A stretch of 64,000 nt of DNA from the NCBI RefSeq assembly GCF_004010195.1, contig NC_057751.1:13664267-13728266 (forward strand), in the 5' to 3' direction. The notes beneath the pieces were generated by a model. It was not told where the DNA came from, searched no databases, and saw only the letters and a list, made by a program, of their open reading frames with translations. Each line of letters opens with the position of its first letter. The first letter of the stretch is position 1. Positions 2,611 to 63,381 of this stretch are shown here, piece by piece. Source of the DNA: Chiloscyllium plagiosum. Taxonomy: Eukaryota. A program made the translations under genes and the position numbers.

Positions 2611-4346
2611 CCTAAGACCCTTAAACTGATAATACAGATCACTTACTCCATAACATGTATTCTATAAATGCATTTAACAGTCTTGCATGATGTCTTACTC
2701 TCAGACACTTTAAAAGTCTTTGTTTCTGGAGCTTTAATCTCCTAAACCATGAAACTTTTGCTGACTTGATTGTTTTGGAGACTGATAGGCCTTTTTCTCT
2801 GATTTAATCACTTCTCGCAGACCTGTAAACAACCCTACAAATCACATTTTATGCACACTTATTAAAAAGTGCTACTCTTAATTCACAATCCTCACCACTT
2901 TTTCCATGCTTCATTCTGTGCTGAAATCAAGTATCTTTGTATATTCACGTCCTAGCTTTGATACTTTGCATTCAATTCTGTCAGATTATATATTTATAGC
3001 TCATTGATTAGACAATCTGTCCATTTTGTCACAATACTATGTTTCGGTACAGAGCCTTTAGTTCTGATTTTTACTCAGCTTGTAATTTCTGATCTTGCTT
3101 GCTGACTGACAGACCCTTAAGTTTGAATGTTCAGTCCCTTTTGCTGCACTCTGTTGATTAACCATGTTGTAACCCTCTACTACTGCCTTGTCCTTTCCAT
3201 TTAAATTTATCACTTCTCCCCTCACATGACACCAAACTGCTAAACTTCAAAGCCTCTCCACTGCCCAAATTATACAATTCAGCGCAACACTTGTGCCAGT
3301 GAAATTCAAGTGAAGACCAAACCATAGGTACTGCTGCCACTTTCTGCAAGTATGGTAGTAGTATCCCATAAACTGAAAGATTTCTCCCACACCAATCTCT
3401 GAATGATACATTTAACTCTCTGATCTTATTTGCCCTTCACCAATTTGTGGTGATGTAAAAAAACAAAAGAAGCAGAAGGAAGACCAAGAGCATTTGGTTT
3501 CTGATGTTAGTTATAATTTGGAATGTGCAAGTTTCCAGAGGCAAAGTGAATATGCCTTTAAGGTTTTGTAAGAGAAAGAAATGTGTAAAGGAACTAGCAA
3601 GTAGAATTAAATCTAGGACACGTGTCTAAGTTATGGTATCAATAATGAAACAGTTACTCATGTTAGCAAAGTGACATCGTGAGACAGTTGTTTTGGCTGA
3701 TTTCTTCCCTAACAGGACGATAATATTGATCTTTCAAAGTGTTATGTCCATGCAAGGACAACACAAAAAAAGTTAGTATTGAAATAAGAGAACAGAAAAA
3801 ATAGACAATAGTTTATTTGCCAAGGAAATTGTATGTCACTGCAAGAGGACAGAAGATGTGGAAGGATGTTTCATCATGGTACGTGAACAAGGTATATTAC
3901 TGTAGAATGAGAAAATTGAATTTAGAGTGAGATGTGTGTCTAACTGCCATATTTGTAATGGTATTGAACATGGAACCACAGAATGGGCATTTTTGAAGTG
4001 TACTGGGTAATGACAGTGCTGAATATATGAAAAGAATACAATGAGTAGCAACTGATGTACAACCACTGAAATTATACTCAAAAGGTCGACACGAGTATTG
4101 CACTTCTCTTACCTATCAAATAACCATTGCACTTAGAAGTATATGAAACAGGTTGCAGATGGAGAAGAGTACATTCAAGGCCAATGGTGGGACATGATAT
4201 GTTAGCATTTCAGTGAAAAAAAATCTCAATTTTAGGCCAATAAAAGAATGTGGTGTAAAATTAAGTGCTGTCTTTCAACAATCCAGTTGTGATTCATCTA
4301 GTACATTTTGGGCTCATCCACTGTTTGTCTAAAAACACTGCGCAAA

Positions 4347-5007
4347 GTTTGAGAAGATTTGTAGCTCGGGTACTCATTGTTGTGGTTCTGTTCGCCGAGC
4401 TGGGAATTTGTGTTGCAGACGTTTTGTCCCCTGTCTAGGTGACATCCTCAGTGCTTGGGAGCCTCCTGTGAAGCGCTTCTGTGATCTTTCCTCCACCATT
4501 TATAGTGGTTTGAATCTGCCGCTTCCGGTGGTCAGTTCCAGCTGTCCGTTGCAGTGGTCGGTATATTGGGTCCAGGTCCATGTGCTTATTGATAGAATCT
4601 GTGGATGAATGCCATGTCTCTAGGAATTCTCTGGCTGTTCTCTGTTTGGCTTGTCCTATAATAGTAGTGTTGTCCCAGTCGAATTTGACAAGCAACATGA
4701 ATTCGACTGGGACAACACTACTATTATAGGACAAGCCAAACAGAGAACAGCCAGGGAATTCCGAGAGGCATGGCACTCATCCACAGATTCAATCAATAAG
4801 CACATCGACCTGGACCCAATATACCGACCACTGCAACGGACAGCTGTAACTGACAACCGGAAGCGGCAGATTCAAACCACTACAAATGCCGGAGGAAAGA
4901 TCACAGAAGCGCTTCACAGGAGGCTCCCAAGCACTGAGGATGTCACCTAGACAGTGGACGAAACGTCTGCAACACAAATTCTCAGCTCGGCAAACAGAAC
5001 CACAACA
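4347..5007. mobile_element. Inverted (palindromic) pair of Penelope 3' ends, Poseidon-like GIY-YIG tail plus pLTR
   Basis: About 310-bp inverted arms (4378-4685 and 4699-5007). Both translate to FDWDNTTIIGQAKQRTAREFxExWHS...DLDPIY, the C-terminus of a PLE GIY-YIG endonuclease. Hammerhead motif in each arm. Confidence 0.9.
4931..4970 (+). ncRNA. Minimal type I hammerhead ribozyme motif (Penelope pLTR)
   Basis: GCA-CTGAGGA-T-GTCACCT AGAC AGTGGAC-GAAAC-GTC-TGC: core CUGANGA/GAAA, stem II GTC..GAC, stem I GCA/TGC, GUC cleavage triplet. Confidence 0.7.
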
Positions 5008-7614: not shown

Positions 7615-7845
7615 TGTGGAGGAGCTAGTGTTGGACTGGGGTGGACAAAGTTAAAAAATCACAACACCAGGTTATAGTCCAACAGATTTATTTGAAAGCA
7701 CTAGCTTTCAAAGCATTGCTCCTTTACCAGTGAACTGTAGAGCAGTTCTGGACAGCTGTGCCTTATGATCCTGCTTCACAGCTACCTGAAGGTGGAGCAC
7801 TCTGAAAGCTCATGTGTGAAACCTGATGTGTGAATTTCAACTTTT
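7615..7845. mobile_element. Degenerate palindromic Penelope pLTR (family C)
   Basis: GTTGGACTGGGGTGGACAAAGTTAAAAAATCACA... left arm, with a decayed inverted right arm ending GTGAATTTCAACTTT. Confidence 0.55.
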
Positions 7846-8120
7846 AAACAGAATGATTAATGCTGAAACTCACTACATGATGCCTAAAAATAGTCAACTC
7901 CCATTTTGTATCCTTGATTTGCTTCAAGACAAAACATTAGCTGCCTAAAGATACTGCACAAGTCCAAGTATTTCTTATTTATTTCTATAATACCTAACAG
8001 AGACTAAACGCAATCAAATAATTCTTTTCAGTCCATTTAAAGTTCTTGTCAAGATCCATTAAAGGTGTTTTTGGCTCTTTCCACACTCCATTGCACTCAA
8101 TTTTATCATCAGTACATACA

Positions 8121-8325
8121 CTGGAAATGTGTTGCTGGAAAAGCGCAGCAGGTCAGGCAGCATCCAGGGAACAGGAGAATCGACGTTTCGGGCATAAGCC
8201 CTGAAGGAGGGCTTATGCCCGAAAAGTCGATTCTCCTGTTCCCTGGATGCTGCCTGACCTGCTGCGCTTTTCCAGCAACACATTTCCAGCCCTGATCTCC
8301 AGCATCTGCAGACCTCACTTTCTCC
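8121..8325. mobile_element. Palindromic Penelope pLTR mini-element (family B) with 15-bp TSD
   Basis: 82-bp inverted arms (8121-8202 and 8208-8289) with 1 mismatch; flanking repeats TCATCAGTACATACA (8106-8120) and TCATCAGTATGTACA (8326-8340). Confidence 0.9.
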
Positions 8326-8344
8326 TCATCAGTATGTACAACCC

Positions 8345-8810
8345 ATTTCATGAGGTCTACTTGGATATATCACTATCTGGTATGGCAACTGTACCCATTC
8401 AAGATCGGAGACAGTTACAGAGAGTGGTGAACTTGGCCCAGACAATCACAAAAGGCCAACCTCCCATCTATAGAATCCATCTACTAGGCCTGATGTCAAG
8501 GAAAGGCCGCCAGCATTCTCAAAGATCCATCCCACCTTGGCAATGTTTTTCTACAACCTCTACCATCGGGGAGAAGGTACAGAAGCCTGAACACACACAC
8601 CAGCCAGTTTTGTAACAGTTACTACCCTGCTATTGTTAGAATATTGAATGGACACAAACTCTTAACATTCACCTGTACCTGTGTTTTTTTGTTTTTGCCG
8701 CTGTTTACCTATTACTTATCTATGCTACTTAACTCTGATCTGCCCATATTGTTCGCAAGACAAAGCTTTTCACTGTGCCTCAGGACACATGACAATCAAT
8801 TCAATTCACT
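8345..8810 (+). mobile_element. Rex1/Babar-like LINE 3' end
   Basis: Degenerate translation WYGNC..QDRRQLQRVV...KDPSH.G..LPSGRRYRS is typical of the Rex1/Babar C-terminus; TTCAA-type tail. Confidence 0.7.
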
Positions 8811-10840: not shown

Positions 10841-11262
10841 GGACAACTTCACCTTGTTCAACGAGCAGCATCGTCACACTGTCCACTTGCCTGGATGGGT
10901 GCAGCTCGAAGAACACTCAAGAAGCTTGACACCACTTGGCAATGCAGCCAACATCATTGGGAACTCCAACATTCACCTCCTTCACCACCAAATGCACAAT
11001 GGCAGCAATATATACCACCTACAAGATGCACTGCATTAATTCACAGAGGCTCCATCAACAGCACTTTCCAAACCCCAAACTAATGCCATGTGGAAGGTGA
11101 TCCATGGGAACACCACTGGTTGCCAATTTCTTTCCAAGCAACACAATATCCTGCCAAAGATCCTGATGGGGTTTGAAAGTAGTCATACCAGACTTGAAAC
11201 ATTTAACTCTATTTCTTTCTTCACAGATGTTGACAGACCTGCTGAGTTTCTCCAGTACTCTT

Positions 11263-15917: not shown

Positions 15918-16045
15918 ATTCCTGATGAAGGGCTCCAGCCCGAAACGTCGATTGTTTGCTCCTCGGATGCTGCCTGACCTACTGTGATTTTCCAGCAATA
16001 CACACTCAACTCTGATCTCTAGCATCTGCAGACCTCACTGTCTCC
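15918..16045 (+). mobile_element. Solo Penelope pLTR (family B) with intact hammerhead motif and 9-bp TSD, inserted in an old CR1
   Basis: CTGATGA-A-GGGCTCCAGCCC-GAAACGTC at 15922-15949; TSD CAGTCTTGG at 15909-15917 and 16046-16054. Confidence 0.85.
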
Positions 16046-18550: not shown

Positions 18551-18664
18551 TATGCTAGTTTTCAATTCTTACTCCTTCTAGTCACAATCGTAAAAGAGAA
18601 AACCAGCATGCAGATAGGGAAAAATTATGATCAAATATCCTTGACCCTGGATTTAAAGTGGGAG

Positions 18665-18848
18665 CAAGAGAGGACTGCAGATGCTGGAGGTCAGAGTTGA
18701 GAGTGTGGTGCTGGATAAAGCACAAGTCAGGCAGCATCCAGGAGCAGGAGAATCTAATGATGGGCTTATGCCCGAAACATTGATTCTCCTGCTCCTCGGA
18801 TGCTGCCTGACCTTCTGTGCTTTTTCCAGCACCACATTCTCAACCCTA
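18665..18848. mobile_element. Degenerate palindromic Penelope pLTR (family B)
   Basis: Inverted arms GTTGAGAGTGTGGTGCTGG... / ...CCAGCACCACATTCTCAAC around a decayed hammerhead centre. Confidence 0.75.
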
Positions 18849-22696: not shown

Positions 22697-24914
22697 CTAC
22701 AGCAAGTGTAACATCAGCATTAATAACCATTCAGACAAAAAAAAATGCAATCAGAACTACATGCATGAACAATTACATATTTGCTTAGAATTCAAATAAT
22801 TTCAGAGAAATCTGAACCATCCAATGGAGGTATTTTTATTTTAATCAAAAAAAGATATGATTTGTCAGAAACCGCACCTTTGATTCTGGAGCACATATGG
22901 ACCAAATGCCTTATCTGAACACTTCTCCAATTAGCCTTGCACTTCTGAGGGGGTATGAGCAATGGGTATCAAGTGTGTCAGAGGTTTACCACTACAAAGT
23001 TTACAAACACAGCATAACACAACAGCTGATTTTCTGAATACTATTGCACAGCTAACTGTAGATAGTGATACATAATGGGCGATATTCAACTCTAATTCTC
23101 AAGCAGAAAGGGTGATGTCATTAGATTCAAAACTAACTTTCGAAAGGGAAAATATTTATAAAGTAAATATTTCAGGGCCCTGGTGCAAAAGCAGAGAAGT
23201 GGGTTAACTTGAATAGTTCTTTCAATGAACCAGCCTAAGGATAGATGGTGCATCGTGCTGATTCTATCAATGTAGCAAGAGCTCAAGGAAAAAAAATAGT
23301 ATGTTTCTACACTTCTGACCTTAGTAACAGCAGAAGCAATATATCCTCTATTAATCAAAAGTTACTTTGAAGTCAGCTGACTGGATGAGAGTCTGAAATC
23401 AATCTCATGTCTGCACCATAGTTACAATTCACAGGCTGCATGCAATAATGGGCCTCAGTAACTTGTTTGGAAAGAGGTGAGGCTGCATACACTTTCTGTC
23501 CAGTCTAGCACAGCAGTCAAGTAGTCAACATTAACATTCAGGTCAAGTGGCTAATAATATTTACCAACAAATATGGGGATGAGGTTACAAATAAAGCAAA
23601 CAGTCAAGACAAGAACTACTAAAATAGGAGCATTAACAGAGGTTAAGCAATCACATTTAACTATATCAAACAATGATGGGCAGCTTGCAACATTTAACAG
23701 GACTACGAATGAATCAAGGTGTGCCTAAGCTTAATCAGCTCATCGGTATTATATGAGCATTAAGATTGAATTACAGCTCCATTACATACTTCCTGGGGGC
23801 AGTTTTAGTGATAGCAATGGTAGTTTTAGGTAAAACAGGATAGGTCCGTGTCTATTTATACTACATTTGGATGGACATTTCAAACATAGATGCTGAGCTC
23901 ACAAGTCAGCCAGGATAGAAAATTATGGTTTACATTCAATGTCAACTATGTTAAGTTCTCAGGCAACAAAGACACAATGGGTCTTATGAGAACCCTCGCT
24001 GATTTTTCATTATTTTTGTTATTATTCTTGTATCAATTTTGAAGTGCAAGCCAGAAATGAACCACTTTCAGATAGCTTGTGGTAACAGAAAAAGAAAAGA
24101 CCAAACAAATTTTGTTTTTTCAGGAGGCCAGGCCTGGTGGCTAACTGCAGTCTGATTCTTAGTTAAAGAGATTCCAATGCATGTAGGGACCCTGGGAATC
24201 AGTTCCAGCAAGTCTGGAAGGGATCCTGTGTTCAAGCAGATGGCAGCTGTTGAATGGTAATTAAGGCCCCGGGAAGAGTCCATCAGGGCGGAACCAGAAT
24301 TAAAGGTTTGTTTTAAACTATGCTTTCTCAGAAATGATTTTTGGCTGCTTCTGGGATAGCATGAAGCTTTGACACCTCTCCACTAGCTTCCAGAAACCCA
24401 AAAAGAGTGGAGAGATGAGTTACGTATTGTTGTCTTTGCCAGAGTGAATGGACCACATGTTAGGAAAAGCAGTCAAGGAGTCCACATTTATGCCTGTGAC
24501 CAATGCAGCATGAAAGTCATTTACATAGTTAGTTTGTGATTTTATTTTATCTATCCCTGAACTGTGTTTGCCTGTCCTTGGTGTAAGTGGGGACCGAAAA
24601 CACATGTTTTAAGTACAGACAATAATCAGCTTAGTGTTTTTAAGTTTGCTCTCAACTATTTATTAAATGCACAATAATCTTAGTAAAGTCTTTTGTTTAA
24701 GATCCAAAACTGGGAGTTTTAAATTTACTTATTCAAAATCTGGACTTTATTATCACAAAGTCTGGCTTGGAACCATCGGATTGCCAGTTGGGAATCTTTG
24801 ATGGTTTAGTTTTATGTAGTATGAAGACAGATCTAGAGAATTTGGTTTGGTTGAGCTGTTCCGTATCGTAACAATGTTCATCAATAACAAAGAATGCTAC
24901 AACGTCATGTGTAC

Positions 24915-25052
24915 CTGATTTGTCAATGATAGCATCAATCTCTTCCACCACATCAAAGTAGGCTTCATTGTTAGCATATCTCACTCCTGTACGGCGCCAG
25001 GGTACCACAGACAGCTGTCCTGTGGGGAGATGGTCCCCAACATTGGTACTAC
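24915..25052 (-). CDS. AP3M2: AP3M2 coding exon 3: STNVGDHLPTGQLSVVPWRRTGVRYANNEAYFDVVEEIDAIIDKSG
   Basis: TTTGTAG acceptor, GTACA donor, 138 nt, mu-chain signature PWR..G..Y.NNEAYFDV.E. Confidence 0.97.
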
Positions 25053-25869
25053 CTACAAATAGCACAAACATGAAGAATGCAAGTACAAAATGAAAAAGCT
25101 ACATCTCTCAGGAAAATTCATGAGTCAAGACAAATTAAAAATTGAAAAGCTACTGCTCAATAAAATATTCAATTAAACATTTTGAATTGAATGTTATGAT
25201 TCAAAGAGTATCTCAACAAAAACTGCCAGAGAAAATTACATTCAAAAAAGATTCAGCAAATCCTAAAATTCAATGCATGTTTTAATATTTTTACATGATC
25301 AAAAGCTGCCAGCTGTGAACATTTTACTCAGGAATTCTTTCAAAATACTTCATGAGTACTCCTTACAAACCTACATCTTCCTGTGAATGCAATATTTTGC
25401 TTGCAAGCGATTAATGTCCTTCTGCCAAGACATAGCACATGGATTGAGCTGCACCTTGGCAGACAACTGCAATACTGGAAATCCAGCATAAAGCATCTAC
25501 TCTACAGAGTATCATGAAACAGCACCAACTGTACCTATTGCTAATGTAAAATATCATTGGTCATGCAATCAGAAGCAGCAATATTTTAAAATGTGTTGCC
25601 AAATAAGTAGTGCAGCTTAATCATGCAAATGGACAAATGAAATATTGTGGAAGTATCAAGAATAAGCCATGATGCCTCTGTATTTCACTGCTACTATACA
25701 TAAAAGGGAAGGTGCCTCACTGCAGTGATACTGAAGCAGTATAACATATCAAGTAGATCTTCAATATCCAACTTACATTTCATGCCTGCAGGCAATCAGG
25801 ACAAGGAAACCTGGTCAACATGAATGTGTTGGGCCGAAGGGCCTGTTTCCATGCTGTATAACACTGACG

Positions 25870-33865: not shown

Positions 33866-34502
33866 CCAAAAAGGAAGAACAATAGAAAGAGAAATGAAGT
33901 AAAGAAAGAAATGAGAGAGAGCAAAATTAGAGAAAAGAGGAGAGAGGGGAGATGGAAAGAAGCTGGGAGTTGGAATCAAGTTCAAGGGTGATGGCTTATT
34001 ATATCTGGGAGGTGTCAAGATAACAGAGGAGGTGGAAGTGCCAGTGTTGCACTGCAGTGGACACAGTCAAAAATCACACAAAACCACCTTATAGGCCAAC
34101 AGGATTAGTTGAAACCACAAGCTTTCAAAGTCCCCCTCCTTCCTCAGATGGCTAGTGAGTGAGAATACATCAGACGCAGAATTTATAGTAAAAGATCAAA
34201 GGATCATACAACTGATGCAAATGTATTGAACAAACCTATATGGCCATCAATCAGTTAGAACAGAGGTGCAGGTTTTGATGGATTAGTACGTAAATCCCAG
34301 AATTTCTTTCAATTTACTGCCCCAAGATAACATCAGGTTTTATCAGAATAAACTGTGACACCTCAGGTCAAACAATGCATTTTAGGTCTGAGGCCTTGTT
34401 TTGAGGTAAAAACAATGACTGCAGATGCTGGAAACCAGATTGTGGATTAGTGGTGCTGGAAGAGCACAGCAATTCAGGCAGCATCCGAGGACAGGCAAAA
34501 TC

Positions 34503-34530
34503 GACGTTTCGGGCAAAAGCCCTTCATCAG
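34503..34530 (-). ncRNA. Minimal hammerhead ribozyme motif, copy 1 (sense to AP3M2)
   Basis: CTGATGA-A-GGGC TTTT GCCC-GAAAC-GTC. Confidence 0.65.
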
Positions 34531-34782
34531 GAATAAAGGCAGAGAGCCTGAAGCATGGAGAGATAAGCTAGAGGAGGGTGGGGGTGGGGAGAGAGTAGCA
34601 TAGAGTTCTTGTAGAGAGAAGAGGAAAACTTCTTCAAGGCAGGCATCCTTGCAAGAGGATTCGCAGTAGGGTTAAAATCAACGAGGTAAAAACAATGACT
34701 GCAGATGCTGGAAACCAGATTCTGGATCAGTGGTGCTGGAAGAGCACAGCAATTCAGGCAGCATCCGAGGACAGGCAAAATC

Positions 34783-34810
34783 GACGTTTCGGGCAAAAGC
34801 CCTTCATCAG
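34783..34810 (-). ncRNA. Minimal hammerhead ribozyme motif, copy 2 (identical, sense to AP3M2)
   Basis: CTGATGA-A-GGGC TTTT GCCC-GAAAC-GTC. Confidence 0.65.
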
Positions 34811-34813
34811 GAA

Positions 34814-34947
34814 GTGTCAGGGAGTTCTGCATTATTGGAGGTGCCAGGCAGTACTGCATTATTGGCGGTGTCAGGGAGTGCGACATTATTGGACATGTCA
34901 GGGAATGCTGCATTATTGAAGGTGTCAGGGAGTGCTGCATTATTGGA
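34814..34947. repeat. 27-bp minisatellite, ~5 copies (GTGTCAGGGAGTGCTGCATTATTGGAG)
   Basis: Directly visible tandem units. Confidence 0.9.
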
Positions 34948-37903
34948 TTCCTGCGGTGGCAGGGGAAAGTGCCAGGATGGGAGGGTGGGTCGTGGACCTG
35001 ACCAGGTAGTCACGGAGGGGACGGTCTTTGCGGAAGGCGGAGAGGGGTGGGAGGGAAATATATCCCTGGTGGTGGGGTCTGTTTGGAGGTGGCGGAAATG
35101 TCGGCGGATGATTTGGTTTATGCGAAGGTTGGTAGGGTGGAAGGTGAGCACCAGGGGCGTTCTGTCCTTGTTGCGGTTGGAGGGGTTGGGTCTGAGGGCG
35201 GAGGTGCGGGATGTGGATGAGATGCGTTGGAGGGCATCTTTAACCACGTGGGAAGGGAAATTGCGGTCTCTAAAGAAGGAGGCCATCTGGTGTGTTCTAT
35301 GGTGGAACCGCTCCTCCTGGGAGCAGATACGGCGGAGGCGGAGGAATTGAGAATACGGGATGGCATTTTTGCAAGGGTGATGGTTTATTATATCTGGGAG
35401 GTGTCATGATAACAGAGGAGGTGGAAGTGCCAGTGTTGCACTGCAGTGGACACAGTCAAAAATCACACAAAACCAGGTAGAGGTAGGGTGGGAAGAGGTG
35501 TAATCCTTGTTTTGAGTCTGTTTGTGTCTCAACCTGGCGTCAGACTGGCTTTATTTCCAAAGTAGGAATTGATGAAAAGCCACATGGACTGACTGCCTAC
35601 AGACCGTGTGTTTTTTGAACAAAATAGAATGTATCTGCAAATGCAAATTCACCCCATAGATTTATATACGTGTGCTTGTGTCAGGTAGTGTGTGTGCGCG
35701 CACGTGCGCGTGTCAGGTAGTGTGTGAGAAAGGGAGCATGAGTGTGTCTGAACTTGTTAACTGACTGGTTATAAATCAGGAGTGAAGCTCTCCAACAATA
35801 TTCTCATAAATCTGCAGCATCAGGCTAATGTGCATAGTCAACATTTTATTCCTGTTAGTTACCCTAATCCATCAAAGTTCATAAAGATCAATTGCCAAGG
35901 GAATAAGGAATCCCTCTTTTATAATCTTCATGCAATTTCAATTGCTTGATATATTCAGAAGAACAAAGAGAGTAGTTATGAAAAAATTGCAATTCTTAGG
36001 AGAGTTCAGGAACAGAGAAGCCAAGTGTGATGGGTGCACAGAATTGGTGAAGGTAACAGAAAAGATATAAAAAGTAATTTCGAAAGGTGGGATTCTGAGT
36101 TTCCCCATGTACAGAAGCAGACTACAGGAGTCAGGAAGTTAGGATGAACCTTTATGAAACACTGATTTGGCCTCAATGGAAGGATTGTGTCCAATTCTAA
36201 ACACTGCATTTTAAAAAGAATGCAGAAAAGATTTAAAGTAGAGGATCCAGGGATTAGGAATTTTGTGGGTAGACTGGAGAAGCTGAGGTTATCATCTTTG
36301 GAAATTTTGAAAGATGTTCAAAATCATGACAGGGTCTACAGGAAGCCACCAAAGAAGAACTGATCCTTTTAGTGGAAGGATCAATTGCCTGGTGACAGAA
36401 ATATCAATCTAACTGACAAAGTACCAACAGCAAGCTGAGAAAAGATGTTTCACTTACCTATTAAAAAAAGACAGTGACTGATTAGTACTTGAAATGCACT
36501 GCCTAAGCATATGGTAGAGATATATTCAATTGTGGTTGTGAAAAGGGCAATGAGTCACCAGAGTAGAAACAATTTTTATGGCTATGTGGAAAAGGCAGGA
36601 GTGTGACTGAGCTGAGCTGTTTTTGTAGATAGCAGAACAAGGACCATCTCGATATCTCTTGAAGAAGAACTATCACTATCTCACCATGCCATAAAAATTT
36701 GTTCATTCCTCAAATTTGGAGTTTGAGATTTAGTCAGGGGAATAGCAACAGGTGGGATAAATAACTTACAATTATCTTGGGGCAGGAATGGGGCAATGAT
36801 CTGATGACAGTCTCTTCCCCAAATAGATTTGGTGAATGGACATGTGCATATACAGTGGTTAGAAAACACAAGCTGTGAAAATGCAGACTCAAATAATTGA
36901 CTCTACTTCAAACCGATGAAATTCCAACGGGAACTCCATTAACATGGCCACAGTAGAGCTGGAGCACTCTGACAACTGTCTTCTTTCGAACTCTGGTAGC
37001 AGTACAAAACCGATACCAGCCATTAACATTGTTCCATTCCACTCAATGCATCACTTTGTTTTTCAACCTGGCCATCAAACTGCAAAAGGTATTGTCCACG
37101 TAAATTCTATTTGCGGCTCGTTAACAACAGAGTTTCTTCAGTAAAGTACTGTTATTATTTCAGCTGACGTATGCTATAATTACTGGATAAGTTCAGACTT
37201 TTGACTGGACTCTTGCTTGACTGATCATATTTGTCTGTTTTGGTTTTCACAAAGTAGTCTTTCACTGAACATAAGCAAGCAATGTTGTGGATTTGCTGTG
37301 TTAAGAAAGTTTCAGTGCGGTAAGATACTTCACACAGTTGTTTTAAAATGTGAGGTAATGAGAAAGAAGGAGAGAAATCAACTCCTAAATTTAGCTTCCC
37401 TACTTCATCTGGAAGCATGAATTGTAGCACATGATCGTGTACGTGTTTGCAGAAGTCAACACATGATGAACCAGATCATAGCAGGACACAATGACTCTTA
37501 TGTTAACCCACTGAAGCAACTCAGGCCTGTGTGTCACAGACTGGGTCATGCACTTGACAATAATTAAAGATGTCAAGATTCCTATTTGTGCCGTAGCTGT
37601 GAGATCTATAGTGAAATAGAATCAGCCATTGTCTTGAACTTAACAAGACAGATGGTTTTGTACTCTACTCCTTAATCATTCGGGGAGCATTTGAGACCAT
37701 AATGTGCTTCTATAGATTTTTCTTTTGCCTCTTCTGATATAAGAAAAACCAGGAACTTGCAGTGACTGTAGCATTCTGTCAACTTGTTTGCAGCGTTCTC
37801 TTTTGCCAATTGAAGGGATTGGAATCAAGTTGACCTCGTCAACGGCAAAGTGTTTGATTGGGGCTGTTAACCTGGACCAATCAAGAAATCCTTGGCTGAC
37901 CAG

Positions 37904-41696: not shown

Positions 41697-42052
41697 TGTG
41701 GAGGAGCCGGTGTTGGACTGGGGTGGACCAAGTTAAAAATCACACAACATCAGGTTATAGTCCAACAGGTTCATTTGGGAGCACTAAGCTTTTTTCGGAG
41801 CGCTGCTCCTTTATCAGATGGCTGTGGAATACAAGATCCTGTTTTGATTAGATTCCCTACAGGATGGAAACAGGCCCTTCGGTCCAACAAGTCCACACTG
41901 ACCCTCCGAAGAGTAACCCACCCAGACCCATTCCCCTGTATTTACTCCTGACGAATGCACCGAACACTACTTGATGAAGGAGCAGCGCTCCGAAAGCGAG
42001 TTCTTTCAATTAAATCTGTTGGACTATTACCTGGTGTTGTGTGATTTTTAAC
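41697..42052. mobile_element. Palindromic Penelope pLTR (family C) with a SINE 3' fragment in its centre, abutting the AP3M2 promoter
   Basis: Inverted arms GTTAAAAATCACACAAC...GGAGCGCTGCTCCTT / TGATGAAGGAGCAGCGCTCCGAAAGC...GTGTGATTTTTAAC; HE1 3' end at ~41845-41970 (-). Confidence 0.75.
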
Positions 42053-42069
42053 AATGGGCAATTTAGCAG

Positions 42070-43235
42070 GTTTAGATTAGAGTGGTGCTGGAAAAGCACA
42101 GCACATCAGGCAGCATCCAAGAAGCAGGAAAATCAACATTTCGGGGAAAAGCCTTTCATCAGGAATAGAGGCAGGGAGAGATAATTTGGGGCGGGTGGGG
42201 CTGCGGAGAAGGTAGCAAAGAGTACAATAGGTGAATGAGGGTGGGGATGGAGGTGATAGGTCAGACGAGAGGGTGGAGCGGACAGGTGGGAAGGGAGATT
42301 GGCAGGTAGGACAGGTCATGAGGACGGTGCTGAGCTGGAAGGTTGGAACTGAGGTAAGGTGGGGGGGAGGGGAAATGAGGAAACTGGTGAAGTCCACATT
42401 GATGCCAAGGGGTTGAAGTGTTCCGAGGCGGAAAATGGGGTGTTCTTCCTCCAGGCGCGGGTGGTGAGGGAGCAGCAGTGGAGGAGGCCCAGAGCCTGCA
42501 TGTCCTCGGCAGAGTGGGAGGGGGAGTTAAAATGTTGGGCCGCTGGGCAATGTGGTTGATTGGTGCGAGTGTCCCGGAGATGTTCCCAAAAGCGCTCTGC
42601 GAGGAGGCATCCAGTCTCCCCAATGTAGAGGAGACCGCATCGGGAGCAACGGATACAATAAATGACATTGGTGGATGTGCAAGTGAAACTTTGATGCATG
42701 TGGAAGGCTCCTTTGGGGCCTTGGATGGAGGTGAGGGAGGAGGTGATGGTGCAGGTTTTGCAATTCCTGCAGTGGCAGAGGAGGGTGTCAGGATGGGAGG
42801 TTGTTAGGGGGCGTGGACCTGACCAGGTCGTCATGGAGGGAACGTGGAACGTGGAAAGGGGTGGGGAGGGAAATACATCTCTAGTGGTGGGGTCCGTTTG
42901 GAAGTGGCAGAATTGTCAGCAGATGATGCAGTTTATGCGAAGGTTGGTAGGTTGGAAAGTGACGACCGGGGGAGTCCTGTCCTTGTTATGGTTGGAGGGG
43001 GGGGTTTGAGGTGCGGGATGTGGATGAGATGTGTTGGAAGGCACCTTCAATCACGTGGGAAGGGAAGTTGCAGTCTCGAAAGAAGGAGGCCGTCTAGTGT
43101 GTTCTGTGGTGGAACTGGTCCTCCTGGGAGCAGATACAGCGAAAGCGAAGGAATTGGGAATATGGGATGGCATTTTTGCAGGAGGTGGGTGGGAAGAGGT
43201 GTAATCTAGGTAGCTGTGGGAGTCGGTGGGATTGT
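42070..43235 (-). mobile_element. Penelope-like element (family B, Neptune-like) 3' half with GIY-YIG and pLTR
   Basis: CHCRNCKTC...FTCTSTNVIYCIRCSRCGLLYIGETG..LAERF.EHL (Cys-rich linker followed by GIY-YIG). Confidence 0.9.
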
Positions 43236-43239
43236 AAAA

Positions 43240-43410
43240 TTGGCAATTTAGCACGACCAATTCACCTGGCCTATACATGTTTGGACTGTGGGAGGAAACC
43301 TACGCAGACATGGGGAGAATGTGCAAACTCCATACAGACAGTCACCTGAGGCAGGAATCAAACCCAGATCCTCTGCACTGTGGGATAGCAGTACTAACCA
43401 CTGAGCCACC
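43240..43410 (-). mobile_element. HE1-type SINE fragment followed by an inverted pLTR piece (43437-43550)
   Basis: Reverse-complement tRNA head (ACCACTGAGCCACC) and V-domain. Confidence 0.8.
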
Positions 43411-43943
43411 TGAGAACAGCCTTCCTGAGAACCACTGGCTTTTGCCCGAAATGTCAATTTTCCTGCTCCTTGGATCCTGCCTGCACCTGCTGTGCTTTTC
43501 CAGTGCCCAAACTCTCGACTCTAATCTCTGCAGTCCTCACTTTCTCCTTCCTGAGAACCACCACCCATCCACGATGAAGCCGTTACTCTAGCACCTTTCC
43601 CTATTTCATTCAATGTAATGAAACAATGGGAGATGCGTTCACAATCCAAGACTGGTCGTACCAAGATAGAAAATAAACACAACACACAATTTTTTCCACG
43701 TTCTCCAGTGACTTGGTAACCAGGTAAAGAGGACGTGCTTTGCTTCCCTTACCAATGTGCACCCCCCCACACACACACATCCCCCAATGCTGTAAAATGA
43801 AGTGGTTGGAATTTCTTTCTTTTTTGCAAATCAATTTCCTCTGTCACTCATGTCAACTTGTTCCGCCCCCTGAAAAGGACCAGTTGTGTCGTGACTTGTC
43901 TTGTCACAGAAAACCTCCAAACTTGACAGCACCAAAGCTAATT

Positions 43944-52689: not shown

Positions 52690-54970
52690 TTGCTGGTGTG
52701 AATGTTAAATACCACCTTGATGGACATCTCGTTAACCTCAATCACTTCTGTGTCAAAATTAAAGTGACAACCCTCATTATTCATGATCTACCAGCCCGTA
52801 GATAGTCTGTGTTGTTGCCACTCTGAAGCAGATTTGCAAACCAACTTTGATCTCTGTGAAGTTCTGTGAACTAGAGACTGAACCAATCCTTCGTATTGCA
52901 AAAAAAAGTGACAGATCAGTCCACACCTTCTCTACCAAATACTCCACTTCCTATGTATGAGAGAATATATGTTGAGCGCAACAAGGAGAAAAGTGAGGAC
53001 TGCTGGAGATCAGAGTCAAGAGCGTGGGGCTGGAAAAGCACAGCAGGTGAAACAGCATCCTGTCGGAGAGGAGGGTGGAGCGGATAGATGGGAAAGATGA
53101 TGGACAGATCGAGAGGGCAGTGCCAAGTTGGAGGCTTGGGACGAGGGTAAGGTGGGAGGAGGGGAAATGAGGAAACTGGTGAAATCCACACTAATACCAT
53201 GTGTTTGCAGGGTCCCAAGGCAGAATATGAGGTGTTCTTCCTTCAGGCATCAGGTAGTTTGGGTTTGGCGATGGAGGAGGCCCAGGACCTGCATGTCCTT
53301 GGTGGTGTGGGAGGGGGAGTTGAAGTGATCAGCCACGGGGTGATGGGGTTGGTTGGTGCGGGTATCCCAGAGATGTTCTCTGAAATGACCCACAAGTAGG
53401 CATCCTGTCTCCCCAATGTAGAGGAGACCACATCGGGTGCAATGGATGCAGAAGATAACGTTTATGGAGGTACAGGTAAATTTCTGTCGGATGTGGAAGG
53501 ATTCTTGGAGCCTTGGATGGAGGTGAGGGGGGATTGTGAGTGCAGGTTTTGCATTTTCTGCGGTGGCAGGGGAAGGTGCTAGGAGTGGCACGAGGGCTGG
53601 TGGGGAGGCTTGGATCTGAGAAGGGACTCGCGGAGGGAATGGTCTCTCCAAAACACTGATAGAGGTGTGGAGGGAAATATATCCCTGGTGGTGGGGTCTG
53701 TTTGTAGGTGGCAGAAGTGATGGAGGATGATGCCACATATACGGAGGTTGGTGGGGTGGAAGGTGAGGACCAGGAGGGTTCTGTCCTTGTTGCGTTGGGA
53801 GGGGTAGGGTTCTAGAGCGGAGATGCGGGAAATGAGGAGATGTGCTGGAGGGCATCATTGACTGTGTGGGAGGGGCAATTGTGATCTTTGAAGAAGGAGG
53901 CCGTCTGGGATTTTCTATGGTACAATTGGTCATGCTCGGTACAGATGAGGAGGAGGTTGAGGAATTGGGAATAAGGGATAACGTGTTTACTGGAGGCAGG
54001 GTGGGAGAAGGTGTTGTCCAGGTAGCTGTGGAAATAAGTGGTTTTGTAGTAGATGTCCGTGGTTAATTGGTCACCAGTGATGGAGATGGAGAGGTCCAGG
54101 AAGGGAGGGAGGTGTCCGAGATGGTCCAGTTGAATTTGAGGTCAGGGTGAAAGGTGTTAGTGAAGTTGCTGAACTGTTTAACCTCCTCGTGAGAGCATGA
54201 GATGATGCCGATACAGTCATCGGTGTAGCAGAGAAAAAGGTGGGTGATGGTGCAGGTGTAGCTGCGGAAGATGGACTGTTACTTGTACTCAATGAAGAGG
54301 CAGGCATAGCTGGGGCCCATGTGGGTGCCCATGGCTACCCATTTGGTTTGGAGGAAATGGGAGGATTGGGTTAAGGGTGAGGACCAGTTCAACCAGGCGA
54401 ATGAGAGAGTCAGTGGAAGGGTACTGGTTAGGACGGCGGGAGAGGGAGAAATGGAGGGCTTGGAGCCTTCGTCGTGGCAGATAGATATAGTACAGAGACT
54501 GGATATTCATATCGCAAATAAGGCATAGGGGGTCGAAGAAACAAAAGTCTTGGAGGAGGTGAAGGGCGTGGGTGGTGTCCCAAACGTAGGTGGGGAGTTC
54601 CTCGATGAAGGGGAACAGGACAGTGTCAAGATATGCAGAGATGAGTTCAGTGGAACAGGAGCAGGCTGAGACAATGGGTCAGCTGGTGAAGAGTATGTTG
54701 AGCATTTATCATTGCTTGGCAACTCCATTGATGAGAAGATCCAAGAAAGAGTCAGCTATTCCAGTTGAACCTTGACTCAACTACGGCAGAGGATGTTTGA
54801 TAACAAAGACCTCAATAAGTCAATAAAAGTCACACAATTGTCATGACTCCACTCCTGTGCTTCAGGAAGACCTGGACAGTGTATTAGCAACAAGTAAGAG
54901 TGCAACTGAAATTCCTTTCGCAATACCTCTCCCTCATCCTTTGGATTCAGTTGGAATACTGTCAAACACT
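52690..54970 (+). mobile_element. Ancient RTE-clade LINE RT fragment split by a Penelope insertion
   Basis: Left piece VNVKYHLDGHLVNL..HSEADLQ..KKVTDQ; right piece (54685-54970) IDEKIQER..LRQRMFDNKD..PLL..KTWTVY; matches the RTE motif pattern IRYRxDGxLFNL/HSExDLQ/ETWTVY. Confidence 0.65.
52985..54680 (-). mobile_element. Penelope-like element (family B): RT C-terminal half, GIY-YIG and pLTR, decayed
   Basis: GVAMGT.MGPSYACLF, FFSA(Y)TDDC-like RT motif, FTCTSINVIFCIHCTRCGLLYIGETG. Confidence 0.88.
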
Positions 54971-55154: not shown

Positions 55155-55745
55155 ACAGCATGAATGACAGGAAACAACAGAGAACATCTCCGGGATACTC
55201 GCACTAACCAACCCCACCGCTCTGTGGCCGAACATTTCAACTCTCGTTCCCACTCTGCCGAGGACATGCAGGTCCTGGGCCTCCTCCATCGCCACTCCCT
55301 TACCATCCGATGCCTGGAGGAAGAACGCCTCATCTTCCGCCTCGGGACCCTTCAACCCCAGGGCATGAATGTGGACTTCACCAGTTTCCTCATTTCCCCT
55401 CCCCCCACCTTACCCCAGATCCAACCTTTCAGTGCAGCACCATCCTCATGACCTGTCCCATTTGTCAATCTTCCTTCCCACCTGTCCGCTCTACCCTCCT
55501 CTCTGACCTATCACTTTCACCCCCAACTCCATCCACCTATTGCACTTTCAGCTGCCTTTCCCCCAGCCCCACCCCCTCCTATTTATGTCTCCACCCCCAA
55601 GGTTCCCAGCCTCATTCCTGATGAAGGGCTTTTGCCTGAAACGTCGATTTTCCTGCTCCTCGGATGCTGCCTGACCTGCTGTGCTTTTCCAGCACCACTC
55701 TAATCTGGACTCGAATCTCCAGCAGTTGCAATACCTACTTTTGCT
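55155..55745 (+). mobile_element. Penelope family B 3' end with hammerhead motif (55618-55645)
   Basis: REHLRDTRTNQPH..VAEHFNS..RLIFRLGTLQP.GMN; CTGATGA-A-GGGCTTTTGCCT-GAAACGTC. Confidence 0.88.
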
Positions 55746-56450: not shown

Positions 56451-58102
56451 CAGCAGAGGAAAGAAAAGGAAGAACCCCTGTACCCTGAAACCCTCTGCCT
56501 CATGGGACATTCGGCCGCATGTGTTCAGAGATCTGTGGGGTGAGAATTGGCCTGTTCAGTCTCACAATCAATGGCAGACTCTCTAGACTGTGAGAAGATT
56601 TCGCCTTCAAATCGAGGGACAGCCAATAATCAGACATCGCTTCCATAAGACCATAAGACGTAGGAACAAGAGTAGGCCCTTTGGCTCCTTGAATCTGCTC
56701 CACCATTCAATTGGACCACAGCTGATCTGACATTGTACATGTCCACATTCCTACGCTTTCACCATAACCTTTGATTTCCCTACTTATCAAGAATATATCT
56801 ACCTTAGCCTTAAATATACGCACACTTGCAGATAATGAGAACTGCAGGTGCTGGAGAGTCAGAGTGGATAAAGAGTTGAGCTGGAGAGAGCACACCAAGT
56901 CAAGCAACATCAGAGGAGAGGGGGAGTCGATGTTTCAGGTCGGAACCTTTCATCAGGACTGAATGAGAGGTCCCAACCTGAAATGTCGACTCCCTTAAAT
57001 ATACACACATCTGTATTGCAAAGCATTCCTTACACTCACAACCCTCAGAGAGAAGACATTCCTCCTCGCCTCGGTTTTAAATTGGTGCCACTTAATTCTG
57101 AGACTACGTTCTCTGGTCTGAGACCCTTCCATGAGGGGAAACATCCTCTCAGCATTTACTCTGTCCAGCACTTGAAAAATCTTATATGTTTCAATGTGAT
57201 CACCACTCATTCTTCAAGCTTCAAATGAGTAGAATCCCAACCTGTTTAGCCTTTGCTCATCTGACAGTCCTTCCATACCAGGGGTATTCTGAGTGAATCT
57301 TCTCTGAATTGTCTCAAATGAAAAAATATCTTTCTTTAAATAAAAGGACCAAATCTGCTTACAGTGCTACACATATACTCTCACCCAGCCATTGTCCAGT
57401 GGCAGTTACACTTCCCTACTCTTCTGCTCCAACTCCCTTGAAATCAGGGCCAATATTCCATTAGCCGTCCAGATTACCTGCCCACACCTGTGTGCCAGCT
57501 GTCTGTGTTTCATGCACAAACATCCCCAAGTCTTTTTGTATTGCAGCTTTCTGCGTTTTTTTCTTTATTTCACCATTCTTGTTCTCCCTTACAAAATGTA
57601 CAAGTCCACATTTTTCCACATTCTGCTCCATTTACCAACTCACATCACCTATCAACATCACACTGTAAATTGTTTGTATCCCTTTCACAACCTGCCTTTC
57701 TATCTTGGCTCTAGCATATTCACTTACTTCCTCTGAGTCATTGAAATATATTATAATCAGTTGCGGTCCCAGCACTGATCCCTGTGGAAGTCCATTGGTT
57801 ACAAATCACCAACCTGAAAAAGAACTCTTTATCCCCATTTGCTATTTCCTGCACATGAGCCAATTTTCTATCTGTGTCAATGCATTACCTTCAACACCAT
57901 GAGCTCTTATTGACTTAACCTTTGTGAGGTACCTTCTCACAAAGTCAAATACAACACATCTACTGGTTCCCCTCTCTCCATTCTGGTTGAGATTTCCTTG
58001 AAAAACTCTAATAAAGTAGTCAAATACCATTTCCCTCTCATGAGGCCATGCTGACTCTGTTTGAATAGAGTATGATTTTCCAAATGTTCTGCTATTACTT
58101 CC

Positions 58103-59489: not shown

Positions 59490-60680
59490 TACACTGGCAC
59501 CATTTTTCCCACCTTTTCCTTCGCTACATCAATAACTGTATTAGCACCACCTCGTGCTCCCATGAGAAGGCTGAACAGTTCATCAACTTCATGAAAACCT
59601 TCCACCTTGAACTTAAGTTTACCTGGATCATCTCGGATACCTCCCTCCTTTATATGGACCGCTCTGTCTCCATCTCTGGTGACTGACTCAACACAGATAT
59701 CTATTCCAAACCCACCGACTCCCACAGCTACCTGGACTACAGCTCCTCCCAACCCCGCCCCCCCCCGTGAAAATGCGATACCTTACTCTCAATTACTCTG
59801 CCTCCGCTGTATCTACACCCAGGAGGACCAATTCCAATCCCAGATGGTCTCGAGTTTCAGGGACTACAGTCTCCCACATGATCAACAATACCCTCCAGTG
59901 CATGTCCTCCACTTCCCGCACCTCTGCATTTGAACCCCACCCCTCCAACCGCAACAGGGGTCAAACCCTCCCTCCCCCACCTTCGGTCTTCAACTTCCAT
60001 CCTACTAATCTCTGGATACAGCGCATTATCTTCTGCCATTTCTGCAACCTACAACCAGACGCCACCACCAGCGTTCCACAGACACCATTCCCTCCATGAG
60101 TCCCTCGTTAGGTTCATGCCCCCTCCCCCACCAACCCACCCTCCACTCCCAGCACCTTCCCTTGCCAATGCAAGAGGTGTAAAACCTGTGCCCTCAACTC
60201 CCCTCCACCTCCATCCAAGGCCACAAAGAATTTTTTTCACATCTTGCAGAGACTTTTCAGCACAATCAAACACCTCATCTGCTGTGTCCATTGCTTGTGG
60301 TTTCCTCTATATTGGGGAGACAGAATGCCAACTCACAGAACTTTTTAGGGAACATCTCTGGGACACATGCACCAAACAACCCCACCACCCTGTGGCCGAC
60401 CACTCCAACTCCCCCTCCCACTCTGCCAAGGACATGCAAGTCCTGGGCTTCCTCCGCCACCAAATCCATGCCACCCGACGCCTGGAGGAAGAACGCCTCA
60501 TCTTCCGCCTTGGAACACTTCAAACACGTGGCATCAACATTGACTTTACCAGTTTCCTTATTCCCCCTCCCCCACCTCATCCTAAATCCAACTCTCCAAC
60601 TTGTCACCACCCTTTTGAACTGTCCTACATGATGCTGCCTGACCTGCTGTGGTTTTCCAGCGCCACACTTTTCAACTACT
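59490..60680 (+). mobile_element. Penelope family B fragment (RT end plus GIY-YIG), decayed
   Basis: FLRYINNC, LKFTW, KPTDSHSYLDY, GFLYIGET..LFREHL, RLIFRLGTLQ. Confidence 0.85.
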
Positions 60681-62434
60681 GTCATTCCTGGTAATCTATC
60701 TGCCCAATTCACTTTAGCTAAATCTATTATTGTAATTCCCTTTATTAAAGTTAAACACAGTCATTTCTGACCCAAGTTTCTCATTCTTGAATTGAATAAT
60801 AAATTTGATCATGTTATGATCACTACTTCCTTGGGAATCATTTACACTGATGTCATTCATTAAACCGCCTTATTGCCATTACCAGATTCAAGGTTGCTTG
60901 CTCCCTAGTTGTCTCCATGACATATTGCTTCAGAAACTATCCCGAATGCAATCTATGAATTCTTTGTCATCACTACATCCAATCAACACAAAGATTTAAT
61001 TCACCCATGATTCCCCCACCTGGGGAGGTGATGCCCTAGTATTATCACTGGACTGTTAATCCAGAGACCCAGGTAATATTCTGGGGATCTGAGTTAGAAT
61101 CCCATCATGGCAGGTGGTGGACTTTAAATTCTATTAAAATAATCTGGAGTCTGATCATGACCATGAAACTTGTGTCGATTATTGGGAAAAACCCAATTGG
61201 TTCATCGATGTCCTTTTGGGAAGGAAATTGCCACCCTTATCTGGTCTGGACAACATGTCACTCAAGACCCTTGACAATGTGGTTGACTCTTAACTGCCCT
61301 CCAGGCAATTGGGTATGGCTAATAAATGGTGGCTAAGCCAGTAATGCCCTCATCGCTTTGTGGTCTGAGTTACGAACACTGTGACACATCAAGGAAGGAG
61401 GAAATGTACCTGGACAGTGTGTTTCAGGAGGCAGTCACACCCCTTAGATTAACTACCTCAAATTCAGTCAGTGGTCAGAGACAGGAGTGTATGACTATGC
61501 CTCAAACCTCCCAATTATTTGCAAATTCCTGCCATAAGTTCGCCTTATATTTTTATTTTTGCTGATGCAGTGCAATTGGAGTAAATTAAATTCAGATTAC
61601 CCTAACTTTTGCTTGTGTTGAAATTTTCACCTATTCCTGCTGGAAAAGTAGCAAATCCAATGGAACAATGCTTGTGGACAGCCACATTTCCACACTAGTA
61701 ACTGCAGATGAGTTGAACTCATGCTTCCAAATGGGCATTTTACTCGATGCAGCAATGATTATGTTAGTTCCCATAACATAAATAAACTGAGCATGGATAT
61801 TGTGGTCTTGAAGTATCTATCAGACATTTATTAAGGCTAATTATTGTGTATAGACCATACATTCCTGAGAAACATAAGTATTTGGGAAAATATTAAGTCA
61901 TTGAGCTTTCTAGGTGTCCAATCACAGTGGGGAAATTAGCTTGGGTAAGCACCTCATTGGATTGAAGTATTCAAAGAGACAAGAAAACAGGAAATAAAAT
62001 AAACTGAACTTCTCACTGATGATGAGAGCAAAATGAATGATTTGGACTGGGATTCATGTACAAGCCAAATATCATATTACAAAGTAAAGAAAAAATATTA
62101 GATTCCAAAAGATGTGTGGACTTTTTCCATGATGATACAATTAGTCTGTTACTGACAATAAGGCTGTTTTGCCAAAACTCCAGCAAAAAAACGAGTTAAT
62201 CTCACGCAATCAGGTCTGGCCTTTTCACAGATTCTTAAAATAAAACTAATGGCATGAAAAGAAAATAATTCACAGTGATTTGGTCGTGGAAAAGCCATTC
62301 AGTTGTATACAAGAGTACTTCTGGATGTGAAGATAAAAAAGGAACACGATTTCATGGTTTGGTCATGTCCATTTGCATCTGGGGGTCTGTTTTGATGTAT
62401 CCTGTAGGGAAGCATTGACTGCAGCTTTCTGGAT

Positions 62435-62634
62435 GTTTAGATCAGAGTGGTGCTGGAAAAGCACAGCAGGTCAGGCAGCATCCAAGGAGCAGGAAAATCG
62501 ACGTTTCGGGCAATAGCTTTTGCCAGAAACGTTGATTTTCCTGCTCCTCGGATGCTGCCAGACCTGCTGTGCTTTTCCAGCATCGCTCTGATCTAAACTC
62601 TGGTTTCCAGCATCCGCAGTCCTCACTTTTGCCT
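62435..62634. mobile_element. Palindromic Penelope pLTR mini-element (family B) with ~14-bp TSD
   Basis: Inverted arms centred at ~62516; flanking repeats TGCAGCTTTCTGGAT (62420-34) and TGCAGCTTCTGGAT (62635-48). Confidence 0.88.
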
Positions 62635-62702
62635 TGCAGCTTCTGGATTTCCATGCTTCTGCTGATTCAAAAGTTCCTGTCAGTTTCAGAAAGGTAATGA
62701 CA

Positions 62703-62931: not shown

Positions 62932-62952
62932 GAGTTTCAGCATCATACTATA

Positions 62953-63381
62953 CAGGTACAAGATCCTTTATCCGACCATCCAAAAACATCCAAAAAGCTC
63001 CAAAATCGGAAGGATTTTTTTTGTGAAGTTTTTTTCTCATTAACAAAGTTGTTTGGCGAGCAAACAGTTAACCCAAGTCGACACCCACTCCATGTATGTC
63101 AGTCAGATGTGACATGGCGGGGGGTGTGGCCAAGCACCAACAGGCCTGGGCTTTCTCTGTGAACACCCCAAATCAACATCCATTCGGTGTGTATCATTCA
63201 GATGCAACATGTTGGGGGGGGGGGGGTGGTTGGCCAAGCACATTCTTAGTTAGAAGTCAGCTTCTCTGGTAAGATTTTTTGAAAATTTCACCATGAAACT
63301 ATCACATTCTGAAAACCAAAAAATTCAGAATTCCGAAAAACAGTTGGTCCCGAGCATTTTGGATAAAGGATTTTGTACCTG
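62953..63381. mobile_element. Tigger-like MITE, same family as 16619-16942, opposite orientation
   Basis: TA-CAGGTACAAGATCCTTTATCC ... GGATAAAGGATTTTGTACCTG-TA. Confidence 0.85.

Follow-up and report, generated by a model that had tools for sequence, protein, structure and literature searches.

Short palindromic insertions in a shark intron are probably one-off products of a Penelope-like element

We analyzed a window of 64,000 nucleotides from Chiloscyllium plagiosum, made of vertebrate-type intronic DNA. Its minus strand encodes the mu subunit of an adaptor complex (Pfam Adap_comp_sub match at 24733-25098), presumably AP3M, the AP-3 mu subunit. This mu-3-like gene spans 7050-41440, and its introns hold most of the elements described here.

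41437, 24945, 22679, 20611, 15405, 9563 and 7131, minus strand: exon motifs of the mu-subunit gene

The element under study, at 8106-8340 (8.1k below), lies in the last intron of this gene, between the exons at about 9563 and about 7131. It adjoins the edge of another abundant repeat (8341-8700), probably a LINE remnant, over which contig depth is high from about 8359. Its parts are the following, where positions with a sign are counted from C3 of the hammerhead, taken as +1.

8106..8120, plus strand: left TSD, 15 nt, with 2 mismatches to the right copy
8121..8202, minus strand: inverted tail-less arm, the 3' end of a family-A Penelope-like element (PLE), covering +8 to +89 from the hammerhead C3 and lacking the CUGANGA box
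8200..8289, plus strand: direct arm, beginning 1 base upstream of the hammerhead C3 (8201)
8207, 8209-8220 and 8228: features of the direct arm, namely A9 changed to G, stem II, and the base after which the cut is predicted
8200-8202: 3-nt overlap of the direct and inverted arms
8290..8325, plus strand: one-sided PLE tail, 36 nt, between the right arm and the right TSD
8326..8340, plus strand: right TSD, 15 nt

An earlier note on this DNA had described 82-bp arms with one mismatch around a 5-nt loop, flanked by a 15-bp TSD, and this description is borne out. The arms (8121-8202 and 8208-8289, one of the 13 inverted pairs listed in the window) are 82 nt each and complementary at 81/82 positions (99%) around a 5-nt spacer, and the TSD is a 15-nt direct repeat whose 2 mismatches set CA against TG; an equal score was reached by 1 of 150 random position pairs. 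The RNA fold of 8106-8340 has a predicted energy of -184.6 kcal/mol (z -23.9), and none of 200 shuffles was equally stable. The 36-nt one-sided tail was absent from the earlier description. The element derives from the 3' end (pLTR) of an abundant PLE, the end that bears the hammerhead, and consists of a 5'-truncated tailed copy and an inverted tail-less copy.

The parent element can be recognized within the window. The arm sequence forms the end of long copies at 42069-43237, 52978-54693, 55178-55744 and 59491-60678, three of which are especially telling.

42069..43237, minus strand: long family-A copy with a GIY-YIG ORF remnant, hammerhead, tail-less 3' end and 16-nt TSD, which ties the arms to a PLE
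52978..54693, minus strand: long family-A copy with tail, RT-like remnant and 10-nt TSD, its hammerhead region deleted
59491..60678, plus strand: long family-A copy with tail-less end and 8-nt TSD, its hammerhead region deleted

Since the arms end copies that bear GIY-YIG remnants and a minimal hammerhead, we take them for PLE pLTR ends and the 36 nt for the PLE tail. The proposed origin from Penelope pLTRs with a minimal hammerhead thereby stands, as the arms continue into ORF-bearing copies. The GIY-YIG assignment has a weak Pfam match in one of the four such frames scanned (E 0.0038, below the cut-off) and an Atlas score of 0.96 to clusters in which 12-15% of the members are GIY-YIG. The RT-like remnant (54289-54675) has no Pfam match, and its Atlas score of 0.90 to a cluster with 19% RVT_1 is a lead only. 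In the alignment, intact copies have CUGANGA followed by a single extra base, a stem II of 4 bp and GAAAC, which is the minimal hammerhead; the form with the extra base before stem II is found in family copies at 15922, 34507, 34787, 42139, 55618 and 56933. A loose hammerhead pattern matched the window 16 times against 5.1 expected, and a search of Rfam gave no match to a hammerhead family. The one-sided tail measures 36, 36 and 37 nt in the elements at 8.1k, 62.4k and 4.3k. A search for a 20-mer of the arm found nothing in viral contigs, and its 17 loci in metagenome contigs were all chance matches of 21-27 nt in unrelated DNA. The 8.1k junction pattern had 0 loci in prokaryotic genomes.

Two observations concern the hammerhead region of related copies. 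The two long copies that lack it (breakpoints 53060/53062 and 60625/60631) both resume at about +45/+46 and have different upstream breakpoints, at about -110 and at -159 or nearer; these losses could reflect an RT that jumped over the ribozyme or deletions at microhomologies. An older, more distant hammerhead-type repeat end at 11180-11258 is apparently also truncated at the core.

The window contains further inverted arrangements of such ends, belonging to family A and to two other families, B and E.

62435..62634, plus strand: family-A fold-back without spacer, its two arms ending at about +11, with a 36-nt tail on the right side
62420-62434 and 62635-62648: TSD of the preceding element, about 15 nt with one gap
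18661..18846, minus strand: family-A fold-back; tail arm from +28/+29 (the predicted cut site), tail-less arm reaching +1
56825..56992, minus strand: divergent family-A fold-back, whose tail arm starts at about -1 and whose second arm (33 nt) runs from +1 to about +35; 17-nt TSD
7616..7845, minus strand: decayed family-B fold-back; axis at about -35, i.e. about 35 nt upstream of the hammerhead core; TSD of 12-15 nt
4341..5007, minus strand: family-E fold-back; 308-nt arms, 37-nt one-sided tail on the left
41697..42052, no strand assigned: two family-B arms with the 5' half of a SINE-like repeat lying between them; no TSD

The architecture of 8.1k had been said to recur at several of these places. 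This is right for 62435-62634, TSD included, and for the fold-back placed at about 56920-56995, which extends over 56825-56992 and has a short second arm. At 18665-18848 the fold-back is present (as 18661-18846) and a convincing TSD is not, the best candidate being 12 nt with 2 mismatches, 5 nt off the end. The second family holds for 7615-7845 and fails for 41697-42052, where positions 17-145 of the SINE-like repeat lie to the left of the right arm and positions 145-322 to its right; this is probably the result of two priming events rather than one hairpin. The fold-back at 4341-5007, around which we looked for a TSD and found none, was missing from the earlier list. Its hammerhead motif is at 4934, and the axis lies within the end of the ORF about 240 nt further upstream, which contradicts the statement that the axis falls at or next to the hammerhead wherever it can be read. 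The 14-nt spacer between its arms belongs, in frame, to the ORF of the tail-less arm. A clear TSD is thus lacking in 2 of the 5 contiguous fold-backs of families A and E. The region 41836-43561 is a nested hot spot: a single SINE-like repeat holds both a family-B arm and a long family-A copy, inserted at nearly one point (about 145), and 25 nt past the end of the repeat lies a single-arm family-A insertion.

To count family-A ends, we built a profile from 15 arms, which gave 17 matches at E<0.01 (the training arms match by construction) and none below E 8 in the reversed window. The matches comprise 16 arms in 12 units plus a distant relative at 11196, excluded from the counts. In this small sample of one 64-kb window, the 5' start falls between -3 and +29 in 7 of the 12 units (8.1k, 15.9k, 18.7k, 34.7k, 43.4k, 56.9k and 62.4k) and further upstream in the other 5 (-73, -439 and three beyond 1 kb). 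No unit starts at +30 to +65, an interval where leave-one-out implants were recovered in 9/9 cases when at least 60 nt long and in 5/9 at 40 nt. Under a flat model the probability of the clustering is (33/69)^7, about 0.006; leaving out 34.7k, which nearly duplicates 34.4k, raises it to 0.012, and the bin itself was set with the data already in view. The clustering of 5' ends near the hammerhead is real. Three of the seven clustered units are single-arm insertions, and two of these have a TSD of their own (9 and 16 nt).

15918..16045, plus strand: single-arm family-A insertion starting at -3, with tail and 9-nt TSD
43436..43545, plus strand: single-arm family-A insertion starting at about +9, with tail and 16-nt perfect TSD

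As single-arm insertions share the place of truncation, the clustering is a property of the template and not of the hairpin, and the axis is centred on the hammerhead because short copies of every kind end there. Cleavage by the ribozyme was rejected as the main source of the 5' ends, since just 1 of the 7 short tail arms begins at the cut site (+29). TSD lengths range from 8 to 17 nt in 9 units; we looked for a TSD and found none at 18.7k, 4.3k, 34.7k, 55.2k, 1.5k and 41.7k. The inverted pair 42069/43545 was considered as a single 1.5-kb unit and set aside, because its members have separate TSDs and represent two insertions. The region 33983-35475 is a young rearranged block in which 34683-34813 copies 34403-34533 (98%), followed by about five 27-nt tandem units (34810-34946) and a piece of family-A ORF; its end, 35372-35475, is a 98% copy of 33983-34086, 1.4 kb away. 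It looks like local template capture during insertion.

The four family-A fold-backs are joined at different places. The junction is 0/+8 with a 3-nt overlap at 8.1k, +11/+11 with an overlap of about 2 nt and zero spacer at 62.4k, +28/+1 with an overlap of about 1 nt at 18.7k, and -1/+1 with no overlap at 56.9k; none of the 6 possible pairs shares a junction. Comparing shared with unique junctions had been suggested as a check; within the window all four are unique, and 5' ends are enriched at the ribozyme (7/12). A fold-back at the ribozyme stem had also been put forward as the source of the palindromes. The junction expected from a snap-back at stem II has 0 matches in the window and fits 0 of the 4 family-A fold-backs, so that we reject it, whereas the proposed strand switching at insertion is supported. 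The core position A9 is G at 8207 and A in 98% of the aligned contig depth, and the predicted pairing probability of stem II is 0.0 inside the full 8.1k hairpin versus 0.78-0.98 in the lone arm. By these models the ribozyme of this copy is dead: its core is mutated and stem II cannot fold in the hairpin.

We then compared the locus with public sequencing data. Four of 24 listed public runs were aligned to 7900-8700 at 85% likeness, with 71,974 aligned contigs in organism A, 57,839 in organism B and 84,412 in organism C. These numbers show that the PLE end family is very abundant, with the caveat that contig depth is not copy number. In all 4 runs loose ends accumulate where the tail ends (8325/8326), and they also gather near the tail-less end (8128). 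Beyond 8202 the contig consensus weakens within about 14 nt, which agrees with a start shortly upstream of the core in many copies. The contigs contain 15 listed joints and 397 further ones, some joints being uncounted; among those listed, none exceeds 9 contigs per run. In organism A a contig joins the unique flank to the left arm (7900-8146), and even there no contig spans the 8.1k palindrome. Assembly breaks at young palindromes, and a subfamily with a shared junction therefore remains compatible with the contig data. The orthologous contig of organism B (6 differences and 1 gap in 217 nt) ceases to follow the reference at 8116, a position within the left TSD, and its remaining 47 letters are unaligned; the site is probably empty in this organism. 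The flank contig of organism C stops earlier and is uninformative on the site. The letters of 8.1k at 8167, 8243 and 8286 account for about a third of the depth in A versus 2-6% in B and C. This suggests that the 8.1k subfamily expanded in the lineage of organism A, and that the insertion is young and lineage-specific. A raw RNA run, of which about 2% was read, showed no accumulation of molecule starts or ends at any place, and the unique left flank had no reads; as the library is polyA single-cell and unsuited to mapping 5' ends, we weigh this result neither for nor against.

The two TSD copies had been described as differing by reciprocal CpG decay. The CA versus TG difference is there; decay is one possible reading of its cause only. 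None of the 8 arm CpGs is deaminated at 8.1k, and two CpG decays in the TSD beside 0/8 in the arms have a best single-rate likelihood of 0.007, computed after the fact. Deamination of single-stranded target overhangs was discarded by reasoning only, as it would give TG on the left and CA on the right, the reverse of what is observed. The TSD 8-mers at 8112-8119 and 8332-8339 are exact reverse complements, which pair in the fold and extend the hairpin across the tail bulge. Micro-inversions templated by hairpins are a known mutational mechanism. Because the 8-mers pair in this way, a single event of this type could explain both changes, and this is one possible reading of the CA/TG difference, with which the CA of organism B, whose contig follows the reference through 8116, would fit.

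Taken together, the data make it very likely that the hairpins are independent PLE insertions. Our reading in full, that they are one-off, dead-on-arrival insertions of the 3' end (pLTR) of an endonuclease-bearing PLE made by two-strand priming, is probable, while the priming step taken by itself is evenly balanced. We favor, tentatively and at slightly less than even confidence, a version in which one ribonucleoprotein primes both nicked strands at two RT start sites, the RNA has a usable 5' end at the upstream edge of the hammerhead, and the cDNAs are joined head-to-head. The element protein would nick both target strands about 8-17 nt apart, and each nick would prime reverse transcription, one at the tail start site and the other at the tail-less start site. 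Both cDNAs would usually stop at the hammerhead region, at the RNA 5' end or through a stall at the protein-bound ribozyme rather than at the cut site. Their 3' ends would then join head-to-head via an overlap of 0-3 nt, and repair would leave the order TSD, inverted arm, direct arm, tail, TSD.

Several features argue for two priming events. Of the 6 tail-less arms, 5 have their 3' ends within about 4 alignment columns of one another, two single insertions flanked by TSDs among them; since single insertions also use it, the tail-less end appears to be a primary RT start and not a mere stop of copying. Every contiguous fold-back consists of one tail arm and one tail-less arm, and in 2 of the 5 readable ones (18.7k and 4.3k) the tail-less arm holds element sequence missing from the tail arm. 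These longer tail-less arms and the zero spacer at 62.4k do not follow from one cDNA copying itself, and we infer that each nick primed a cDNA of its own. Palindromes often lose central sequence after insertion, however, and such deletions could have produced the asymmetries of 18.7k and 4.3k. The sample is also small, the lack of a clear TSD in 2 of the 5 contiguous fold-backs of families A and E weighs against the reading, and the RT remnant of the presumed parent is, as said, a lead.

The strongest rival is that the second arm arose by snap-back, the 3' end of the first cDNA pairing with itself across a few bases and a polymerase copying back. We regard it as unlikely overall, even though it accounts well for some units. 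The minus strand of 8121-8325 reads as a tail-primed cDNA with a 3-bp stem and 5-nt loop followed by a copy of itself, and the 8.1k arms are 81/82 identical to each other versus at most 85% to other copies, so that this unit is equally compatible with both explanations. At 56.9k the second arm ends at an arbitrary point (about +35) rather than at the tail-less start site, which fits snap-back better. Against it stand the zero-spacer junction at 62.4k, the excess of the tail-less arm over the tail arm at the junctions of 18.7k and 4.3k, and the fixed tail-less end that single insertions use as well. A self-priming idea close to this rival is found in the available text of PMC3846280.

The earlier note proposed a stereotyped, ribozyme-centred palindromic mini-element, MITE-like and possibly mobile in its own right; in this version a non-autonomous element would itself be transcribed and re-inserted. 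The recurrence of family-A sizes at about 170-210 nt, the clustering of 5' ends at the hammerhead and the occurrence of fold-backs in 4/7 short versus 0/5 long family-A units (one-sided Fisher p 0.07) speak for such a class. Yet the four junctions all differ, the ends are asymmetric, TSDs vary between 8 and 17 nt, and the axis of the family-E fold-back at 4.3k is far from the ribozyme, none of which suits a stereotype. Mobility of its own is opposed by the unique junctions, by a ribozyme with mutated A9 and, in the predicted fold, no stem II, and by single-arm insertions with the same truncation. Public contigs hold hundreds of different joints, none dominant among those listed, and RNA reads at the centre mostly depart from the reference, with 279/277 loose ends at 8200/8202 and a depth of about 420 at 8207. 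We consider this explanation very improbable. A shade more improbable still is a hairpin kept for host function, as small-RNA precursor or intronic dsRNA of the AP-3 mu-subunit gene: the near-perfect 82-bp stem in the last intron and the intact arm CpGs would suit it, but Rfam miRNA matches reach 33.8-40.8 bits against gathering scores of 60-104, and the organism B contig that departs inside the left TSD, with an arm subfamily common in A and rare in B and C, explains the perfect stem by youth.

If the two-strand reading is true, a single mechanism, with a step that has yet to be demonstrated for PLEs, accounts at once for the one-sided tail, for the axis at the hammerhead and for the inverted copy of the pLTR. 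In the available text, the formation of inverted pLTRs is still called undefined (PMC8557442), and the later steps were left open in vitro (PMC11167929). Our search of the open-access literature, which did not extend to subscription papers, Repbase or Dfam, turned up no description of mini fold-backs in sharks and no paper that explains inverted pLTRs by two-strand priming. The genome offers a test set in its tens of thousands of short copies, where junction position, overlap, spacer and arm identity can be counted and would separate two-strand priming from snap-back. Repeat annotators can mislabel such hairpins as MITEs or miRNA precursors.

The closest biochemical counterpart is the Poseidon PLE of the lizard Anolis. 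According to the accessible part of that study (PMC11167929), its protein nicks and extends both target strands in vitro, reverse transcription starts at two sites bounding the tail, hammerhead cleavage is not needed, and no RNA ends lie at the cut site. The two starts match the tailed and tail-less ends found here; in the same part of the study "inverted" occurs once, in a methods sense, and inverted genomic copies are not described, so that the link is drawn by us. At the genomic level, passages of PMC3846280, PMC8557442, PMC2377424 and PMC8969392 describe complex PLE insertions with an inverted 5'-truncated pLTR and a one-sided tail of 30-40 bp, and the head-to-head architecture is already published in PMC3846280, PMC8557442 and PMC4209133. 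Those insertions share with ours the head-to-head inverted copy, the palindromic or overlapping junction, the one-sided tail, TSDs of about 8-17 nt and the variability from copy to copy. They differ in that the direct part is often about 125 nt here, the whole insertion being a hairpin of 170-210 nt, and in that 5' ends cluster at the hammerhead, a point unquantified in the passages of those papers.

As for the ribozyme, metazoan pLTRs carry a minimal type I hammerhead that combines CUGANGA and GAAA with one additional unpaired base ahead of stem II and a helix III that is minimal and palindromic; motifs are found in pairs on opposite strands at distances of 100-700 bp, and many others stand singly, left by truncated PLEs (available sections of PMC4209133). 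The 8.1k core differs from these in being present in one arm only, mutated and buried in a long stem. In Drosophila Penelope, the end of an intron borders on the hammerhead, and the accessible text places the start 46 nt ahead of that intron (PMC2377424, PMC4209133), near the motif and not at it.

Three other systems deserve comparison. According to the available passages of bioRxiv 10.64898/2026.07.22.740005, non-LTR retrozymes (see also PMC7229834) are likewise non-coding and PLE-derived with a type I hammerhead; however, they are head-to-tail tandem units, each with a complete ribozyme, whereas the hairpins here are head-to-head with a ribozyme predicted to be dead. The sole direct pair of units in the window (34403/34683) lies in the rearranged block. 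In twin priming of L1, the second target strand primes a second cDNA, the inverted segment is joined by microhomology and the TSD is kept. There the two segments are adjacent and not duplicated, whereas both arms here cover the same sequence. With MITEs, as defined in the accessible text of PMC8969392, the hairpins have in common that they are short and non-coding with inverted repeats and TSDs. Unlike MITEs, they have no symmetric termini (the 36-nt tail is on one side), no fixed TSD length (15, about 15, 17 and 12-15 nt among the fold-backs) and no internal structure common to copies (4/4 family-A junctions unique within the window), and their parent is an RT/GIY-YIG retroelement. The contrast is given by a conventional MITE-like element at 62951-63383, with 23-nt terminal inverted repeats (96%), about 430 nt in length and TA-rich ends. 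Hence, the hairpins are neither MITEs nor retrozymes nor active ribozymes: they are the known anatomy of PLE insertions at its shortest.
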